Below, piece by piece: positions 5,856 to 62,399 of a DNA stretch of 64,000 nt. The DNA comes from a virus (taxonomy: Duplodnaviria; Caudoviricetes): the IMG/VR virus record IMGVR_UViG_3300045015_000053; one strand, 5' to 3'. The translations under genes were made by a program, and so were the position numbers. Positions within the stretch are counted from its first letter, which is position 1, and each line of letters opens with the position of its first letter. The notes under the pieces were generated by a model. That model saw only the letters and a list, made by a program, of their open reading frames with translations. It was not told the DNA's origin and ran no database searches.

Positions 5856-6401
5856 GTGACGGTGTTTCCACAAGAAGGGGATGTTGCCGTGAACTATGCT
5901 CGTAAGCTTCTCGCTTGGACGAACCGCTCCGAGAAGCCGTATGCGACTCACTCGGTCGTTTTGGTCGTAGAAGACAACAAGCGGAAAGGCACCTTCGGGC
6001 TGTGCATCAACCGCCCCGCGCCGATCCTGCCGTGTACCTGTGGTCAGTGTCCGGTTCCGCCCGTGCCTCTGTACCTCGGCGGGCCGAAGCATCTTGACAA
6101 CCGATACTTTCTTCTCCATGATCAACCGCTGGCTGCGGACAAGCGTGACCGCGTCATCGAAAAGGTGTACGTCTCATGCCCATACGCTCTGAAGGAACTT
6201 CAGGGTGAAGGCAAGGACCGGGGCAAGATGATCACCGGGTACTTCCACTGGCTTCCCGGCGAACTCGAAGAAGAGGTCGCGATGGGCTGGTGGGAGGTCA
6301 ATGACAAGCCCACGCACGAACAGGTTCTTGTTTCGGAACCGCGCCACGTTTGGGGGAAACTGGTCCCCCTGACCGAACGGATCTATCCGAGTGCGAACTG
6401 A
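5856..6401 (+). CDS. YqgE/AlgH (DUF179)-like protein
   Basis: VVLVVE...GTFGLCINRP; LYLGGP; GYFHW.PGELEEEVAMGWW. Confidence 0.8.
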   Translation: MTVFPQEGDVAVNYARKLLAWTNRSEKPYATHSVVLVVEDNKRKGTFGLCINRPAPILPCTCGQCPVPPVPLYLGGPKHLDNRYFLLHDQPLAADKRDRVIEKVYVSCPYALKELQGEGKDRGKMITGYFHWLPGELEEEVAMGWWEVNDKPTHEQVLVSEPRHVWGKLVPLTERIYPSAN

Positions 6402-7465
6402 TGCTCACCTGTCCCGAATGCGGCGCGGAAATGATTCTCCGCGAGACGACGAAGTACACCTACAAGAACGGCGACCCTCGCAAGTTCTACGGGTGCAGCA
6501 GATGGCCGGATTGTAACGCCACGCACGGCGCACACCCCAACGGTTCGCCGTTGGGTGTTCCGGCCAACAAGGAAACGAAAGACGCTCGAATCGCCGCACA
6601 CGCGGCCTTCGACGGCCACTGGCAGGAACTCGGCCTTCAACGCAACGAGGGCTACCGGCTGCTCAGGGACATCATGGGTATGAGCAAAGAAGAAGCTCAT
6701 ATCGCCAACTTCAACAAGGAACAGTGCCAAACATTGATCGACAAGATCAAGCAACGCAGGGAGAATCCGATGGTCAGGGGCTTCAAAGGCGTCACCTTTT
6801 CTGGCGCGGACTGTGACACCGAGATCGGGACTCTCGTTGAGCTTCAGGGGCGGTTTCCGTACATGGAGGTTGGCGTTCTCTGGTCGCTGACGAAAGCCGG
6901 TACTCCGCGTTACCCACACCGAGATTGGATCGAAAAGGCCACCGAGCGTGGTCTGCGGTTCTCGCTGCACCTGTGCGGCAAGGTCGCGCGGACGATGGTA
7001 GAAGGCACCGAAACACCGGAAATCCCCGGCAAGCCGAAACGCATCCAGATCAACTGTAACGGGATGCGGGGGATGACGGGCTGGTTCCGGGCGTTCCACT
7101 CGATCATCCAAAAGAACACGGAACTGGACAGCGACCTTCAGTTCATCATTCAGGCCGGCGAAGCGGCGGGTGCGTACTGGGTCGGCCGTGCCGAGGGCGA
7201 AGGTCACAACGTCGCGCCGCTGTTCGACAAGAGCGGCGGGCGTGGTGTGGAGACGGACGACTGGCCCGCCCCGCTCGCGGTCAGTTACAACGGGTACGCG
7301 GGCGGCATCGGCCCGGACAACGTGCAGGCGGTCGTGAAGAAGATCGGGACGTTCAAGACCGACTTCTGGATCGACATGGAGTCTCGCATCAGGACGGGGG
7401 ACAAGTTCGACTTGGACAAAGTCGTCCACGTCCTCAATCTCGTGGACACAATGATCGAACGGTGA
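6401..7465 (+). CDS. topoisomerase-type Zn-ribbon/DUF3268-like domain in frame with TrpF-like TIM-barrel phage protein
   Basis: CPECGAEM..FYGCSRWPDC; second half has LFDKSGGRG, GYAGGIGPDNV, WIDMES; internal GGGAG-N6-ATG at 6770. Confidence 0.65.
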   Translation: MLTCPECGAEMILRETTKYTYKNGDPRKFYGCSRWPDCNATHGAHPNGSPLGVPANKETKDARIAAHAAFDGHWQELGLQRNEGYRLLRDIMGMSKEEAHIANFNKEQCQTLIDKIKQRRENPMVRGFKGVTFSGADCDTEIGTLVELQGRFPYMEVGVLWSLTKAGTPRYPHRDWIEKATERGLRFSLHLCGKVARTMVEGTETPEIPGKPKRIQINCNGMRGMTGWFRAFHSIIQKNTELDSDLQFIIQAGEAAGAYWVGRAEGEGHNVAPLFDKSGGRGVETDDWPAPLAVSYNGYAGGIGPDNVQAVVKKIGTFKTDFWIDMESRIRTGDKFDLDKVVHVLNLVDTMIER

Positions 7466-10630: not shown

Positions 10631-11102
10631 AAAGGGTGCCTTCGAGGGTCGATTTGGTTGGCACCCGTGCGACCGGGAAACCTACCTCAAGCTGAAGCTG
10701 ATCCACAAGGTCTTCTGGGAGTCGATCTTCCGGTCGGCCCAGTGGTATCGGTGGGACCGCAAGGAACCCCAGAACCGCGTACAGCGGTTCCATCGGGTCG
10801 AGGGCAAGCGGGAGAAGCTGTTTCCGCCGAAGCCGCTGCCCGAACCGAAGCTTCCGCCGTACCTGCTGAAGATCGAACACAAGAAGATCCACCGGACGTA
10901 CACCGGGGACTACAAGCAGTGGATCGACCACGAGAAAGAAGTGGTCTGGTACACGCTGAAGATGAACCCGGACCTGTACGCGGCCGTCGCGGACTTCCAG
11001 AACGCGCGGACGCCGGTGATCGAAAGTCAGGTTCGGCCGCTGTCCTGCACGGCCGAAAAGATCGAAACCCTGTACCAGCAAGCCGTGGAGTGGCTTCGCT
11101 GA
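10611..11102 (+). CDS. hypothetical protein
   Basis: ORF track, typical codon usage. Confidence 0.55.
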   Translation: MNTKTNEKGAFEGRFGWHPCDRETYLKLKLIHKVFWESIFRSAQWYRWDRKEPQNRVQRFHRVEGKREKLFPPKPLPEPKLPPYLLKIEHKKIHRTYTGDYKQWIDHEKEVVWYTLKMNPDLYAAVADFQNARTPVIESQVRPLSCTAEKIETLYQQAVEWLR

Positions 11103-39769: not shown

Positions 39770-41479
39770 ATGGCACTTTCCACCAACATCTTCGACGCGA
39801 AGTGCAGCCGTTGTCCGACCACGTTCGGTGCGAAGCAAGGCTTCTACGAGAAGACCCAGAACGGGATTGTCTTCTACTGCAAGAACTGCGCTGCCAAAGT
39901 CGGCGAAAGCCCGGCTTCCGTTCCGGTCAACAACACCCGGCGGCTGACCGCCAACTTCGAGATTTTTACCCCGAAGGAACCGGACAACCTGCCCATCATC
40001 CGTGCGTTCCCCGGCGCTCGCTGGACCGGCCAGTGCTGGTCCGTTAGCCGCGAAGAGGGGGACCGCGTCCGCGTTCTCGAACTTGCCGACCGCCTCGGCC
40101 TTCAGGTCGATCCGAGCCTCCGCACCATCAAGTTGTGCGGGCGGGCCGAGGCCGCTAAGACGCGCGGGCTGTACCCGTTCCAAGTCGAGGGCGTCGATTT
40201 CGTCAGCAAGAAGGCTCACGCCCTTCTCGGCGATCAGATGGGACTCGGCAAGACCGCCCAGTCGCTCATGTCGTTGGAAGAAAGCGACCGCGTTCTGGCG
40301 GTGGTTCCCGCGAGCCTCAAGAACAACTGGCGGGCCGAAATCCTGCTGTGGCGTCCAGAGTTCAAGATCAAGATCATCAAGAAGAAAACCGACTTCGTTC
40401 TGCCGGTCGCGGGCGAAATCGTCATCATCAACCGCGAATTGCTCCCCGACTACCTTACTCCCGTCAAGGTCGAGGGCGAGAAGTACCCCGTTGCCAAATG
40501 GCCCGAAGGGGTTCGGCAGTACGTCGGCGAGATTCTTGTCATTGTTGACGAGGCTCACAAGTACAAGAACTGGCAGGCCAAGTGCAGCAAGAAGATGGGG
40601 CAGTTGAGCCGCGCGGCCCGAAAGGTTATCGCGTTGACCGGCACCCCGCTGCTCAACAAGCCGGGCGACCTGTTCGGCGTCCTGTCGAGCGTCGGCATGG
40701 TGGGCGAAGTGTTCGGGACGTGGAACCGCTTCAAGGAACTGTTCAACGCCCAAGACGGCCAGTACGGACTCGAATGGGGCATGCCCAGTCCCGAAGTGCC
40801 GGAACGTCTCCGTCGCGTCATGCTCGCCCGCCGCCGCGAAGAGGTGCTTCCGAACCTCCCGCGCAAGCAATACGTCGATCTGCCGGTGGACAACACCAAG
40901 TCCATCGACAAGCAGTTGGACGCACTGGACAAGGTCCACGGCAAGTTGTCCCGCGAAGGCGGCAGGCTGCCGCCGTTCCAAGACTTCAGCCGCATCCGCG
41001 CCGAGATCGCCGAGGCCCGGATTCCCGAAATGCTGGAGTTCGTGGAGAACTGCGAGGAACAGGAAGAACAGCTTGTGGTGTTCTCCTACCACCTCGCACC
41101 GCTGGATCAGTTGGCGATGCGTGAAGGGTGGGCGGTCATCAGCGGCGATACGCCGCTCGATCAGCGGCAGCAGATCGTGGACGCCTTCCAGCAGGGACAC
41201 TTGAAGGGCGTCGGGCTGACGATTCAGGCCGGTGGCGTGGGTCTTACCCTCACGGCCGCGAACAAGATGCTGTTCGTGGACATGGACTGGGTTCCGGCGA
41301 ACAACTGGCAGGCAGAAGACCGCATCTGCCGTATCGGGCAGGAAGCTGACAAGGTGACGATCTATCGGATGGTCAGCAACCACCCGCTCGACCGTCACGT
41401 TCACACCCTGCTCGCCACCAAGATCGCTTTGATCGAGGCGGCGACGTTACAGCAAGCCAAAGCGGTATTGCCCACATGA
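39770..41479 (+). CDS. SNF2/HARP(SMARCAL1)-like helicase with N-terminal Zn finger
   Basis: LGDQMGLGKT; IVDEAH; LTGTP; AGGVGLTLT; QAEDRICRIGQ. Confidence 0.9.
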   Translation: MALSTNIFDAKCSRCPTTFGAKQGFYEKTQNGIVFYCKNCAAKVGESPASVPVNNTRRLTANFEIFTPKEPDNLPIIRAFPGARWTGQCWSVSREEGDRVRVLELADRLGLQVDPSLRTIKLCGRAEAAKTRGLYPFQVEGVDFVSKKAHALLGDQMGLGKTAQSLMSLEESDRVLAVVPASLKNNWRAEILLWRPEFKIKIIKKKTDFVLPVAGEIVIINRELLPDYLTPVKVEGEKYPVAKWPEGVRQYVGEILVIVDEAHKYKNWQAKCSKKMGQLSRAARKVIALTGTPLLNKPGDLFGVLSSVGMVGEVFGTWNRFKELFNAQDGQYGLEWGMPSPEVPERLRRVMLARRREEVLPNLPRKQYVDLPVDNTKSIDKQLDALDKVHGKLSREGGRLPPFQDFSRIRAEIAEARIPEMLEFVENCEEQEEQLVVFSYHLAPLDQLAMREGWAVISGDTPLDQRQQIVDAFQQGHLKGVGLTIQAGGVGLTLTAANKMLFVDMDWVPANNWQAEDRICRIGQEADKVTIYRMVSNHPLDRHVHTLLATKIALIEAATLQQAKAVLPT

Positions 41480-55597: not shown

Positions 55598-55638
55598 TTC
55601 AGCCCATTCCACTATGTCCCATTTTTTGGGAGACTCTT

Positions 55639-56253: not shown

Positions 56254-56309
56254 TACGCGAGAGCAGAGGTGTTGAACACTTCCTCTGAATTCGATCTTTG
56301 AAAACTTAG

Positions 56310-56363
56310 ACAATTACGCCACGCGAGCTACGCACAAGGCAACCCCTCGCGTGGCGTAATTGT
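56310..56363. promoter_or_regulatory. 18-bp perfect inverted repeat in CRISPR leader
   Basis: ACAATTACGCCACGCGAG-N18-CTCGCGTGGCGTAATTGT. Confidence 0.8.
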
Positions 56364-56397
56364 AGTACCGATAATAGTTCGATTTGTGGCCATGAGC

Positions 56398-57294
56398 CTC
56401 AAACCCTCAATCCCATTCATTGGGAGTTGTCATCTTACCAAGCTCGATGTTCAAGTGACGCCCGCAGACCTCAAACCCTCAATCCCATTCATTGGGAGTT
56501 GTCATAATTGCTCTTTGAGACGCAGCAACTTCGAGACTTCCGACTCAAACCCTCAATCCCATTCATTGGGAGTTGTCATGGCGAGCGGCTGCTTCGGGTG
56601 ATCCAGAAGAAAGAACTCAAACCCTCAATCCCATTCATTGGGAGTTGTCATCCGATCTTCATGGGCAACCTTCAGGAAGGCACAACCCCGCCTCAAACCC
56701 TCAATCCCATTCATTGGGAGTTGTCATCGCTCGGTGCTGGTCTGCGAGTCGGACGGTGAATGCTCAAACCCTCAATCCCATTCATTGGGAGTTGTCATAC
56801 GAAGGACGGCAAAGGGAAACTTGGCATGGTCCGGCTCAAACCCTCAATCCCATTCATTGGGAGTTGTCATCTCTGGGTTCTGGTCCGGCGGCAGCAGCTT
56901 CTTCATCAAACCCTCAATCCCATTCATTGGGAGTTGTCATCCGTACCCGACCGCTTTGGAAACAAGAATGCCCGCCTTAATCCCTCAATCCCATTCATTG
57001 GGAGTCGTCATAGCAGCTCAGTGTCGATGGTCGCGAGTTGCGAGTCCGCTCAAGTCCCAATCCCATCTTTTGGGAGTTGTCATCTGGGAGCCGCAAGCCG
57101 ATGGGTAGAAGACCAGCAATTTTTGTAACTAATCCCATTTCGTTCGGAGTCGTCATAAGACCGACAGATGGGCAGCATGACTGGCTGCAAATTCAATCCC
57201 ATTTTTTTGTTGGGAGTTGTCATGACGGGTTCGATGGCCTGGATTGCGCTGATGGCACACTTCTCAAACTCGTCCCATTCATTGGGAGCTACCT
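56398..57294 (+). CRISPR. CRISPR array 1: 13 repeats (36 nt), 12 spacers
   Basis: CTCAAACCCTCAATCCCATTCATTGGGAGTTGTCAT at 56398, 56470, 56544, 56616, 56692, 56763, 56835, 56905; degenerate copies at 56976, 57049, 57121, ~57187, 57263; first ten spacers 34-40 nt. Confidence 0.97.
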
Positions 57295-57921
57295 GACTAA
57301 CTCAATCACCTTCGGCGGCACCTTTTCCGAAACGTAATAGGACGGCCACCTGCTGTCCTCCGAACCACGCCCGTCATTCTGCAACTTGTCTTCCAACACC
57401 GACCGCTTCACCTTCAACACCACCACCGGCGACGGCCGATCCGAATTGTGTTCCTCATGTTCCTCCACCCTCTGCTTCCAGAACTTCACCCCGCCCTTCT
57501 CGGCAAAAAACACCTTGCCCGAACTGTAGTCCGAGTAGTTCGTAAACTGCTTGACTGCCGTAGGAGACAACCCGTTCTTGCGAATCAGCGGCAACCGCGA
57601 TTTCGTCGTAACGTGGTAAAGGTAATCGTCCTTACCTTCCTTCTGAATGGCCTCGCGGTCCAACCTAGCGGCCAATTTCTCGTGATCGACGTTCCTGTAA
57701 CGCTTCGCCAGTTCGCGGTAAACGAACGCGGCGTAACCCTCGGACACGCCGAGCTTTTTGCCAATCTCCGCAATCGACAAACGACCCGTCGCAGCCAGTT
57801 GCTGCATCGCCCACGGCTTGATGGAAGGCTCAATCGAGGTGTACCACGCTTCCCACGCCTCCCACGGGTCGCCGGCAGAAGGCGGAACACTCATTTCTAG
57901 CCACAGTTTGAAAGTCGTCAT
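57289..57921 (-). CDS. ADP-ribosyltransferase-fold (KptA/Tpt1-like) protein
   Basis: YLYHVTTKSRLPLIRKNGLSP; KVFFA; VVVLKV; YYVSEKVPP; starts MTTFKLWLE. Confidence 0.55.
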   Translation of the reverse strand: MTTFKLWLEMSVPPSAGDPWEAWEAWYTSIEPSIKPWAMQQLAATGRLSIAEIGKKLGVSEGYAAFVYRELAKRYRNVDHEKLAARLDREAIQKEGKDDYLYHVTTKSRLPLIRKNGLSPTAVKQFTNYSDYSSGKVFFAEKGGVKFWKQRVEEHEEHNSDRPSPVVVLKVKRSVLEDKLQNDGRGSEDSRWPSYYVSEKVPPKVIELVR

Positions 57922-59104: not shown

Positions 59105-60088
59105 AGACCAATGGCTTAGGCAGGTGCAGGCAAGGTTGTATGCGATTCGCTTACGGTCTGCAAGCTATCGGTCAAGACCAATGGCTTAGGCAGCAGTCAG
59201 CCTTGAGGACTACGAAAGAACGCATGTCTGCAAGCTATCGGTCAAGACCAATGGCTTAGGCAGATTCCGCTCATCTGGTTCCACTTGGGGTATATCGAAT
59301 CTGCGAGCTATCGGTTACGACCGATAGCTCAGGCAGGAGGGTTGGCGACGGCAGGCATCGGCGCTCTGCGTGCTATTGGTTACGACCAATCGCTCAGGCA
59401 GCCGTCCGTGTCTGGGATTGCGACGACGTGCAGCATCTGCGAGCTATTGCTTACGACCAATGGCTCAGGCAGTAGCTGATGCCGAGTTCATCGGCAACCT
59501 GCGAGTTATCGGCTAAGGCCAATGACTCAGGCAGGACGACTACCTCGATCTGACGCCACTTCTGCGAGTTATCGGCTAAGGCCAATCGCTCAGGCAGAAC
59601 CGCTGCCTCGTGTTGCCAATGATGACCGCGACCCTGCGTGCTATTGGTTACGACCAATCGCTCAGGCAGCCCCAGTCGAACAGGACGTTGGCGACGGCGT
59701 TCATCTGCGTGCTATTGGTTACGACCAATGGTTCAAGCAGATTCGGCAGCATTACGGATCTTTTCGATGAACCTGCGAGCTATCGGTCAAGACCAATGGC
59801 TCAGGCAGAACTATAAGCCCGTGTCGCCTGTCTGCGAACCATCTGCCACGGCTCATGGTTCAAGCAGGTTCAAGCAGGACATCCTGCTGTTCGACTCTCT
59901 GACCGCAAACGACTGCGAGCTATCGGCTAAGGCCAATCGCTCAGGCAGTGTTGGATGTATGCGAAGTCGCCGTTGCTCGCCTGCGGGCCATCGGTTGCGA
60001 CCAATGGCTCAAGCAGATCTTGAAGTTCGCGTCATTGCATTTGTTCTGATACCTGCGAGCCATCGGTTACGGCCAATGGCTCAAGCAG
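59105..60088. CRISPR. CRISPR-like array 2: 14 full + 1 partial 36-nt hairpin repeats, spacers 23-45 nt
   Basis: consensus CTGCGAGCTATCGGTTACGACCAATGGCTCAGGCAG at 59158, 59228, 59301, 59366, 59437, 59499, 59562, 59634, 59705, 59773, 59832, 59913, 59981, 60053; unique spacers. Confidence 0.85.
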
Positions 60089-61042: not shown

Positions 61043-61260
61043 ATAAGGAAGACAAACGCCGACTCCGAAACCTCAAGAAGAACATCAAGAAGCTCGGTCA
61101 CCAGAAACAACGACACAAAACCAAACAACTCCTCAACCAAGACCCGACCAACGAGGAGCTACAACAGGACAATACCGACTACGGCAAACTTGCCTCCGAT
61201 ACCCTCAACGGACTCGACAAGGATAAGACACGGAAGACCGAGTGGCACCAGAATACATAA
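61039..61260 (+). CDS. small basic protein
   Basis: ATGA overlap. Confidence 0.45.
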   Translation: MNKEDKRRLRNLKKNIKKLGHQKQRHKTKQLLNQDPTNEELQQDNTDYGKLASDTLNGLDKDKTRKTEWHQNT

Positions 61261-61264
61261 CGAC

Positions 61265-62236
61265 ATGGAAATCTACCAAGACATCGTCGTCAAGGGGAAC
61301 CTAGTCAAAAAAGGAATTCGCCCCTGCGAGGAACGCTACCAAGCCGTCAGAAACGTCTGCCGACTCTTCCAAAGACCTATCACCGTACTCGACATCGGCG
61401 CGAACCTCGGCTACTTCTCCTTCAAACTCGCACAAGAGTTCAAAGGCACCTTCGTCATGATCGAAGGCGGCAAAGAAGAACAAAATTACCTCCTCACCCT
61501 CTGCAAACTCAACGACAACAACCAAGTCGTTCTACTCAACAAACACATCACCCTACAAGACCTCAACGAACTCGCAAACACCGAACACTTCGACATCACT
61601 CTCGCACTCAGCGTCATACACTACTTCAACGAACCACTCGACCAAGTCTTCAAAGCCATGACCAGACTCGGCAACTACCTCGTCATCGAAATGCCACACC
61701 CACAAGAACACGCCCACAACCAACACCGCGTACAACAAGAACCACTCCCCCTACACGAATACCACACCGAAATCCTCACCCAAACACCCACACACACCGC
61801 GCCCGGACTCAACAGGGACACAATACTCGTTCACTGCCCACAGAAGACACTCGACAAACCGTACTGGGACTGGCTCCCACACAACAGCTTCTACCAGAAA
61901 CCCGAAATCGTCTCCACACACGAACTCAAATACATCCAGTTCCAACGCAAACCCGACTCCCGACACTGGATCGATGGCATCAACTTCTCCACCTTCATCG
62001 CACTCAAAGGCAACTTCCCCACCAAACACAAACTCGTTCAGCAACTCAAGAAAATCGATACCTCAAACTCCACCGACACCCGACAGTGGAACATGATCCT
62101 CTCCAGAGACACAATCACACCCATCGACCACAAAGACCCACAAGCACCACACACCAACCCACAACACGAAAGAAATTGCCTCGACACCATCATCCAACGC
62201 TTCCAGAACGACCAACTCGCACCCAACGCCCTCTAA
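61265..62236 (+). CDS. class I SAM-dependent methyltransferase
   Basis: VLDIGANLGYFSF; FDITLALSVIHYF. Confidence 0.8.
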   Translation: MEIYQDIVVKGNLVKKGIRPCEERYQAVRNVCRLFQRPITVLDIGANLGYFSFKLAQEFKGTFVMIEGGKEEQNYLLTLCKLNDNNQVVLLNKHITLQDLNELANTEHFDITLALSVIHYFNEPLDQVFKAMTRLGNYLVIEMPHPQEHAHNQHRVQQEPLPLHEYHTEILTQTPTHTAPGLNRDTILVHCPQKTLDKPYWDWLPHNSFYQKPEIVSTHELKYIQFQRKPDSRHWIDGINFSTFIALKGNFPTKHKLVQQLKKIDTSNSTDTRQWNMILSRDTITPIDHKDPQAPHTNPQHERNCLDTIIQRFQNDQLAPNAL

Positions 62237-62238
62237 AC

Positions 62239-62347
62239 ACGCGACAATAGCTCACAGGCTATATCCCCGCGCTACTATAGCCCCACGCGACAATAGCCCC
62301 AGAGCTATAGCTTCACGAGGCTATATCCTCACCGGAGCTATAGCCCC
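62239..62347. repeat. cluster of short degenerate direct repeats
   Basis: ACGCGACAATAGC x2, AGGCTATATCC x2, CTATAGC x3. Confidence 0.65.
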
Positions 62348-62399
62348 ATGCACACATACACACACCAAATACCATCCACATATACTCCCACACATCTAT

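Follow-up and report, generated by a model that had tools for sequence, protein, structure and literature searches.

Canonical type I-E CRISPR-Cas systems, such as those of Escherichia coli K-12 and Thermus thermophilus, carry cas3 and cas1-cas2. Their arrays, which Cas6e/Cse3 processes, have a repeat of 28-29 nt, and the Cas1-Cas2 ruler holds their spacers at a constant 32-33 nt. A type I-E variant with a Cas5-HNH protein has been described from Cloacimonetes ADurb.Bin088 (Altae-Tran et al. 2023, PMC10910872), and structures of the Cas5-HNH Cascade, 8yb6 among them, are available (Liu et al. 2025, PMC11794572). The Cloacimonetes locus comprises five genes, including Cas11, and has a 29-nt repeat with the tail GTGAACCG, 32-nt guides, and a 61-nt crRNA. 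Cascades of this kind attract interest because they are compact and cut DNA precisely. Huge phages provide a further point of comparison: almost all of them are without Cas1, Cas2, and Cas4, some share repeats with their hosts, and the study that reported this did not describe an HNH-armed I-E Cascade (Al-Shayeb et al. 2020, PMC7162821).

Here we analyze a CRISPR array and its cas genes in a stretch of viral DNA of 64,000 nt, referred to in its whole length as the window. The locus shares with the Cloacimonetes system a Cas5e with a homologous C-terminal HNH domain, a Cas7e, a Cas6e, the absence of Cas3 nearby, and, behind the stem-loop of the repeat, an 8-nt tail whose second letter is T and whose sixth is C. 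It has neither the fifth gene nor the 29-nt repeat, the 32-nt guides, and the 61-nt crRNA of that system; its Cas5-HNH is 352 aa long and not 388 aa, its Cas7 has 503 aa, and its setting appears to be that of a huge phage. The predicted Cas6e fold, the hairpin near the 3' end of the repeat, the geometry of a putative 8-nt handle, a leader on the cas side, and the apparent addition of new spacers at the leader end are common to the locus and to canonical I-E systems, from which it differs by a longer repeat, by longer and more variable spacers, and by the absence of cas3 and cas1-cas2 from the window. An interference module with a compact array and no adaptation genes nearby is also what huge-phage systems present, although hosts with similar repeats are known for some of those and none was found for the window. 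What differs from known systems is the apparently lineage-specific long repeat, which belongs to a Cas5-HNH derivative of type I-E in a probable huge-phage setting with no adaptation genes nearby.

Results

A four-gene operon encoding a cas8e-like protein, cas7e, cas5-HNH, and cas6e, all on the same strand, ends 144 nt upstream of the array (Table 1). The cas8e-like protein has no match of its own in Pfam, NCBIfam, or PADLOC, and the protein at the cas8 position of a related locus, L030, has a weak Cse1 match in Pfam. The cas7e gene starts 2 nt past the cas8 stop and encodes a protein about 120-140 aa longer than canonical Cas7e; a separate cas11/cse2 gene is absent from the operon, which has four genes only and no ORF between cas8 and cas7. 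Cas5-HNH matches the solved Cas5-HNH chain 8yb6_A over both domains (residues 20-311, E 5e-21), and its CxxC, HH, and CxxCH motifs are intact and invariant among its relatives. By Pfam and by a predicted double-RRM fold, the gene adjoining the array encodes a Cas6e: its AlphaFold model (pLDDT 69) matches T. thermophilus Cse3-RNA best (2y9h, TM 0.60, E 3e-7), with E. coli CasE and 8yb6_B, which is Cas6 in the I-E HNH Cascade, as other fold matches, its C-terminal G-rich loop (GCGL) aligns with that of E. coli CasE, and His37 is invariant in five relatives.

Table 1. Positions of the CRISPR-Cas features and other elements discussed, in window coordinates
Feature	Position	Strand	Basis or remark
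SNF2 helicase	39770..41479		64% identical to L004 483-2189
cas8e-like large subunit, 491 aa	51497..52972	+	30% identity (E 7e-39) to same-position L030 protein
cas7e-like backbone subunit, 503 aa	52974..54485	+	Pfam Cas_CT1975 E 6e-30; PADLOC Cas7e E 8e-33
cas5e fused to C-terminal HNH nuclease, 352 aa	54539..55597	+	TIGR01868 casD_Cas5e E 7e-24, above cut-off
Repeat-like hairpin TCCCA-TTTTT-TGGGA	55617..55631	+	between cas5 and cas6; core search, fold
cas6e-like endoribonuclease, 204 aa	55639..56253	+	Pfam PF08798 E 2e-12, 48 bits vs cut-off 25
Leader, 144 nt	56254..56397	+	between cas6 and R1
Leader motif TCTTTGAAANCTTRGAC, 17 nt	56295..56311		L004 counterpart at 7062-7078
Perfect 17-bp inverted repeat in leader, 18-nt loop	56311..56327 / 56346..56362		
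CRISPR array, 13 repeats and 12 unique spacers	56398..57298	+	
Well-conserved array part, R1-R9 (36 nt) and S1-S9 (34-40 nt)	56398..57047	+	repeat/spacer reading
Starts of R1-R9 (36 nt each)	56398, 56470, 56544, 56616, 56692, 56763, 56835, 56905, 56976	+	
Trailer end, degenerate repeats R10-R13 with three old spacers	57048..57298	+	repeat/spacer reading
Starts of R10-R13	~57049, ~57121, ~57187, ~57263	+	
Second array, different ~36-nt repeat	59105..60088		
ORF	61190..62236		
Short tandem array	62238..62348		follows the ORF above

No Cas1, Cas2, Cas3, or Cas4 family match was obtained among the 160 ORFs scanned in the 64-kb window, a search that covers 64 kb out of a genome of about 400 kb. At least one bacterial-type Cas5-HNH locus has a Cas1 gene downstream of cas6, so not every member of the family has lost its adaptation genes. 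Two metagenomic contigs, 402 and 476 kb long, carry an identical Cas5-HNH, and the other genes of the window are phage-like (PHROG matches, sigma factors, SmpB, Apyc1, and HNH endonucleases); judged from this gene content and from those contigs, the array-bearing contig appears to be phage-like and 0.40-0.48 Mb in size. Upstream of 51 kb, ORFs encode a macro-domain protein that PADLOC also identifies as DarG-like, a SpoU methylase, two proteins with sigma-70 region 2, SmpB (E 4e-54), and an Apyc1-like anti-Pycsar protein (E 9e-22).

The array shows what is generally expected of a CRISPR array, namely at least three near-identical repeats of 23-50 nt, unique spacers of similar length, and adjoining cas genes. 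Each repeat consists, from 5' to 3', of a 13-nt flank, a TCCCA stem arm, a TTCAT loop, a TGGGA stem arm, and the tail GTTGTCAT, so that a hairpin with a 5-bp stem and a 5-nt loop is followed by exactly 8 nt. R1 to R7 show no sequence difference, R8 deviates at base 1, and R9 deviates at three bases. Spacers S1 to S9 measure 36, 38, 36, 40, 35, 36, 34, 35, and 36 nt (mean 36.2, sd 1.7). The mean spacer G+C of 0.60, against 0.56 for the window, says little. Decay then grows stepwise to the right: R10 has an altered loop, R11 a damaged stem, and R12 an expanded loop, and R13 is without the 8-nt 3' tail. The 15-nt stem-loop core occurs at 11 sites in the window with up to two mismatches, against 0.10 expected from shuffles; 10 of these lie within the array and one between cas5 and cas6. 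The stem is short, and the predicted fold of a single repeat is not significantly better than that of shuffles (z = -1.4); in the minimum-energy fold the stem is extended via a bulge, which would leave a 4-nt tail.

The anatomy described by the sequence-only reading is borne out. A 36-nt repeat with a TCCCA-TTCAT-TGGGA stem and exactly 8 nt behind it is found in nine repeats, spacers of 34-40 nt are found across the nine well-defined ones, and the geometry that was called Cas6-compatible, a stem followed by an 8-nt tail, now stands beside a gene for a predicted Cas6e. Degeneration runs to the right, the cas operon and the 144-nt leader stand on the left, and plus orientation is thereby supported. 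The array that had been placed up to 57294 is real, and only its end shifts, since the last degenerate repeat reaches about 57298.

The plus orientation is supported by the direction of the operon, by the 144-nt leader with its motif TCTTTGAAANCTTRGAC, and by the polar decay of the repeats, and also by the conserved 3' tail and by a G-U pair in the repeat stem of the related locus L004 that is possible only in plus-strand RNA. The reverse orientation, raised by an L004 repeat that starts with the reverse complement of ATTGAAAC, was rejected on these grounds (operon direction, polar decay, conserved 3' tail, and plus-strand-only G-U pair) and on that of polymorphism at the leader end. Only window-type loci and L004 were found to have the leader motif, in each case within the leader. 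Even with two mismatches allowed, the window contains no second copy, and a recurrent general phage promoter was rejected because of this single occurrence; the motif may be an array promoter or a regulator site. It is kept in both leaders despite Cas protein identities of only 40-45%. The leader also contains a perfect inverted repeat (Table 1), otherwise flagged only by a spurious miRNA-like Rfam match and with no clear counterpart in L004.

A profile search of 1.8 billion representatives returned 22 proteins at E ≤ 1e-30; three of these (P0002, P0003, and P0010), and no others, form a group with the window protein. No relatives were found in IMG/VR by single protein or by profile, and a word-based search with Cas6 returned the query alone. 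Two arrays only were recovered from the clade of the window; the L030 contig ends before its array, and none was seen in L006 within 10 kb. The closest relative with an array is L004, whose Cas5-HNH is 44-45% and whose Cas6 is 40% identical to those of the window, and the 64% identity between the neighboring SNF2 helicase genes indicates that L004 comes from a related phage. In L004 and in L030 (4990-6747) this helicase gene directly precedes cas8, whereas in the window it is 10 kb further upstream. It may be a conserved neighbor of this Cascade clade, or its presence may simply be phage synteny.

The L004 repeat is 37 nt long. Its flank again measures 13 nt, its stem has 6 bp, one of them a G-U pair, and closes a loop of 4 nt, and its tail is identical (GTTGTCAT); the one complete L004 spacer has 36 nt. 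As L004 shares the repeat design at Cas identities of 40-45%, the long repeat appears to be a stable trait of one phage-borne sub-lineage. Across the wider family the picture is different, as three Cas5-HNH loci (Cloacimonetes, L032, and L040) have 29-nt repeats with spacers of 32-35 nt. L032 combines the 29-nt repeat with the tail GTGGTCGG and spacers of 32-33 nt, and the phage-like contig L040 (477 kb) carries 24 such repeats with the tail GTGAACCG and a period of 61-64 nt. A 36-nt repeat is thus not standard for Cas5-HNH loci in general and recurs in design only within the clade, in L004. In the tails of all loci read, T stands at position 2 and C at position 6, as in GTTGTCAT; the E. coli I-E tail ATAAACCG has both letters at these places as well. 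The repeat had also been called non-I-E. This holds for its length and for its spacers, which are noncanonical, but not in the sense of a repeat foreign to I-E, as its 3' 23 nt have I-E geometry.

The phage-borne loci L040 and L031-L033 are like the window in their phage context and in an operon of Cse1-like protein, large Cas7, Cas5-HNH, and Cas6e; they differ in their 29-nt repeats and 32-35-nt spacers. In L031 and L040, as in the window, a large Cas7 goes with the absence of cas11, which L032 and L033 also lack; bacterial-type Cas5-HNH loci have a Cse2 or a Cse1-Cse2 fusion (L036 and the P0017 locus). The canonical I-E array of 24 repeats in L040 (8506-9990) is located inside the operon, between cas7 and cas5-HNH. 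At the same cas7/cas5 position the locus in ENA ERZ1758346 has a gap that is free of genes, which hints at an L040-like layout.

The single core site outside the array is a hairpin that precedes cas6 and copies the stem and loop size of the window repeat (5 bp, 5-nt loop). Its 3' arm and the next G make up GGAG, a Shine-Dalgarno site that stands 7 nt ahead of the cas6 ATG. At the equivalent site L004 (~6398-6413) has a hairpin whose 6-bp stem and 4-nt loop are like those of its own repeat, ending in GGGAG before the ATG, and L030 (~11043-11056), whose array was not captured, has a hairpin with a 5-bp stem and a 4-nt loop that ends in GGGAG. Because this operon-internal hairpin changes shape with the repeat, repeat and Cas6 are likely to have evolved together. 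Its position and likeness to the repeat suggest that Cas6 may bind its own mRNA there, and the hairpin is a candidate site for Cas6 autoregulation or for processing of the operon.

These observations bear on the proposal of the sequence-only reading that the effector was re-coupled to an array of another type, probably from the host, in which case host Cas1-Cas2(-Cas4) would expand the array and the host would share the repeat. Repeats of 36 nt with spacers of 34-40 nt recall Cas4-containing or type III adaptation more than I-E, and the L004 repeat begins with GTTTCAAT, the reverse complement of ATTGAAAC, a tag typical of I-B, I-C, I-D, and III repeats. Adaptation genes are lacking within the window, and huge phages, which generally have no Cas1, Cas2, or Cas4, in some cases share the repeats of their hosts (PMC7162821). 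Against this, the 3' 23 nt of the repeat combine I-E geometry with an I-E-like tail, L004 has the same 13-nt flank, stem, and identical tail although its Cas proteins are only 40-45% identical, and the hairpin in the 5' UTR of cas6 co-varies with the repeat. Moreover, the search for the repeat in a bacterium, from which the host was to be recognized, gave no matching array in 185,579 species genomes, a metagenome collection of 241 million records, IMG/VR, GenBank phages, PLSDB, or the Rfam CRISPR-DR families. We therefore regard a re-coupling to a host array as unlikely, and any such event would predate the split of the window and L004 phage lineages, since flank, stem, tail, and a 36-nt spacer are shared between the two.

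The searches behind this negative result were of several kinds. A 20- or 22-nt exact core of the repeat gave no match in IMG/VR or in the species genomes. A two-copy pattern, in which the 12-nt 3' end of the repeat occurs twice at a distance of 45-70 nt, gave none in IMG/VR, 6 matches in genomes, and 14 in the JGI metagenomes; none of these 20 is a CRISPR array, all being tandem repeats of 15-91 nt or coding repeats. The Rfam CRISPR-DR families gave no match to the window repeat at E up to 1, and the whole array gave none in GenBank phages or PLSDB plasmids. The repeat searches used exact words, which a diverged host repeat or an unsampled host would escape. Targets were sought as well: 24-nt seeds of S1-S3 found none in IMG/VR, and all spacers, compared with the window and the fetched loci, gave chance matches of at most 14 nt and no protospacer.

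Taken together, the comparisons indicate that the long repeat is probably native to the CRISPR lineage of the phage clade and did not come from a host. It can be envisaged as an I-E derivative in which the Cas6e/Cas5 recognition module, stem-loop and 8-nt tail, has been retained and the 5' flank lengthened from the canonical 5-7 nt to 13 nt, the rest keeping the I-E design. The repeat would then have co-evolved with the cas genes of the clade, with no recent uptake from a host array.

Variation among strains gives some insight into how the array changes. The array is identical in three independent assemblies (the window, L001, and L037). In a strain from another run, L002/L038, which is 99.8% identical with 13 mismatches and 6 gaps over 12 kb, R1 is joined straight to S8; the seven leader-side spacers are absent and the five older ones are common to both. 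The Logan contig L039 breaks inside R1, as expected of a k=31 assembly that stops where several spacers follow one repeat, and the unbranched path of L002 indicates that the short form is probably real in that sample. Compared at the sequence level, the two forms would be a picture of acquisition at the leader end, but a single deletion between R1 and R8 would look alike. The first repeat of L002 has C at base 1, like R1, where R8 has A, and such a deletion explains this more simply; a one-base slipped integration of spacer 7 would be an alternative account.

If spacers are added at the leader end, the source of the integrase has to be considered. Canonical I-E Cas1-Cas2 works with a fixed 28/33-bp ruler. 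A spread of 34-40 nt and a 36-nt repeat do not fit this ruler, so the integrase is most likely of a non-I-E type and acts in trans. The adaptation module could be supplied by the host or lie elsewhere in the 0.4-Mb phage genome. The suggestion that a different adaptation machinery expanded this array is accordingly reasonable in view of its repeat and spacer lengths; the host with the same repeat that went with this suggestion was not found.

It is also conceivable that the array is a frozen inheritance, still processed and used but no longer growing, with old spacers gained by an ancestor that possessed an adaptation module and a strain difference that is due to deletion. This would accord with a window that has no adaptation genes, with the same array in the window, L001, and L037, with an L002 first-repeat C as from one R1 × R8 recombination, with the decay of four of the 13 repeats, and with spacers of which none has a detectable target. 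Yet R1 to R7 are 100% identical, as they would be after recent leader-proximal duplications, the polymorphism lies exactly at the leader end, and blocks of the leader are conserved with L004, which together make an array that has ceased to grow improbable in our judgment. The remaining reading, a chance coding or non-coding tandem repeat in place of a CRISPR array, could point to several spurious ORFs of 83-156 aa that cross the array, but it is refuted by the array anatomy and has a negligible probability, as unique spacers of similar length separate identical 36-nt repeats, a complete Cascade operon with Cas6 lies directly upstream, degeneration is polar, and a relative has a homologous array.

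Discussion

The combination of array anatomy, cas family assignment, and comparison with related loci leads us to favor, at slightly better than even confidence, an explanation in which this is the cognate and predicted functional array of a phage-borne, Cas3-less, I-E-derived Cas5-HNH Cascade, with a lineage-specific repeat and with adaptation in trans. The array would be transcribed rightward from the leader, and the Cas6e-like enzyme would bind the 5-bp TCCCA/TGGGA hairpin and cut at its 3' base. From this putative cleavage site, the crRNA is predicted to consist of an 8-nt 5' handle, GUUGUCAU, a guide of 34-40 nt, and a 28-nt 3' handle formed by the 13-nt linker and the hairpin, and to measure about 70-76 nt in total. 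The 5' handle would be held by Cas5, the guide would run along the Cas7 backbone, and Cas6 would remain on the 3' hairpin. If the HNH domain of Cas5 acts like its counterpart in the Cloacimonetes complex, it may then cut the target (PMC10910872, PMC11794572).

The distance from handle to hairpin, that is, spacer plus flank, is about 49 nt in this array and about 37 nt in canonical I-E systems. The additional 12 nt or so correspond to about two 6-nt Cas7 steps. Added to the larger size of Cas7 and the lack of a cas11 gene, this hints, speculatively, at a different stoichiometry of the complex. A more far-reaching proposal, which we put forward as possible but rather doubtful, is that the I-E Cascade of this clade was redesigned for a crRNA of about 70-76 nt, with a larger Cas11-less backbone, spacer loading in trans by an integrase of non-I-E type, and a Cas6 that binds the repeat-mimic hairpin over its ribosome-binding site and so limits its own synthesis. 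Since this hairpin covers the start site of cas6, crRNA processing may be subject to a simple feedback, a mechanism of which we found no description.

A clade that tolerates guides of 34-40 nt and a longer 3' handle would reveal flexibility in the Cascade ruler and in the geometry between HNH and Cas6. The array in the window is also a clean case in which to ask how phage arrays without visible cas1-cas2 gain spacers.

Two further repetitive elements lie beyond the trailer. About 1.8 kb downstream there is a second array with no adjoining cas gene, whose copies vary in sequence yet retain a long hairpin. A short tandem array with 16-nt (46-nt) units, similar to CTATAGCCCCACGCGA, follows an ORF further to the right (Table 1).
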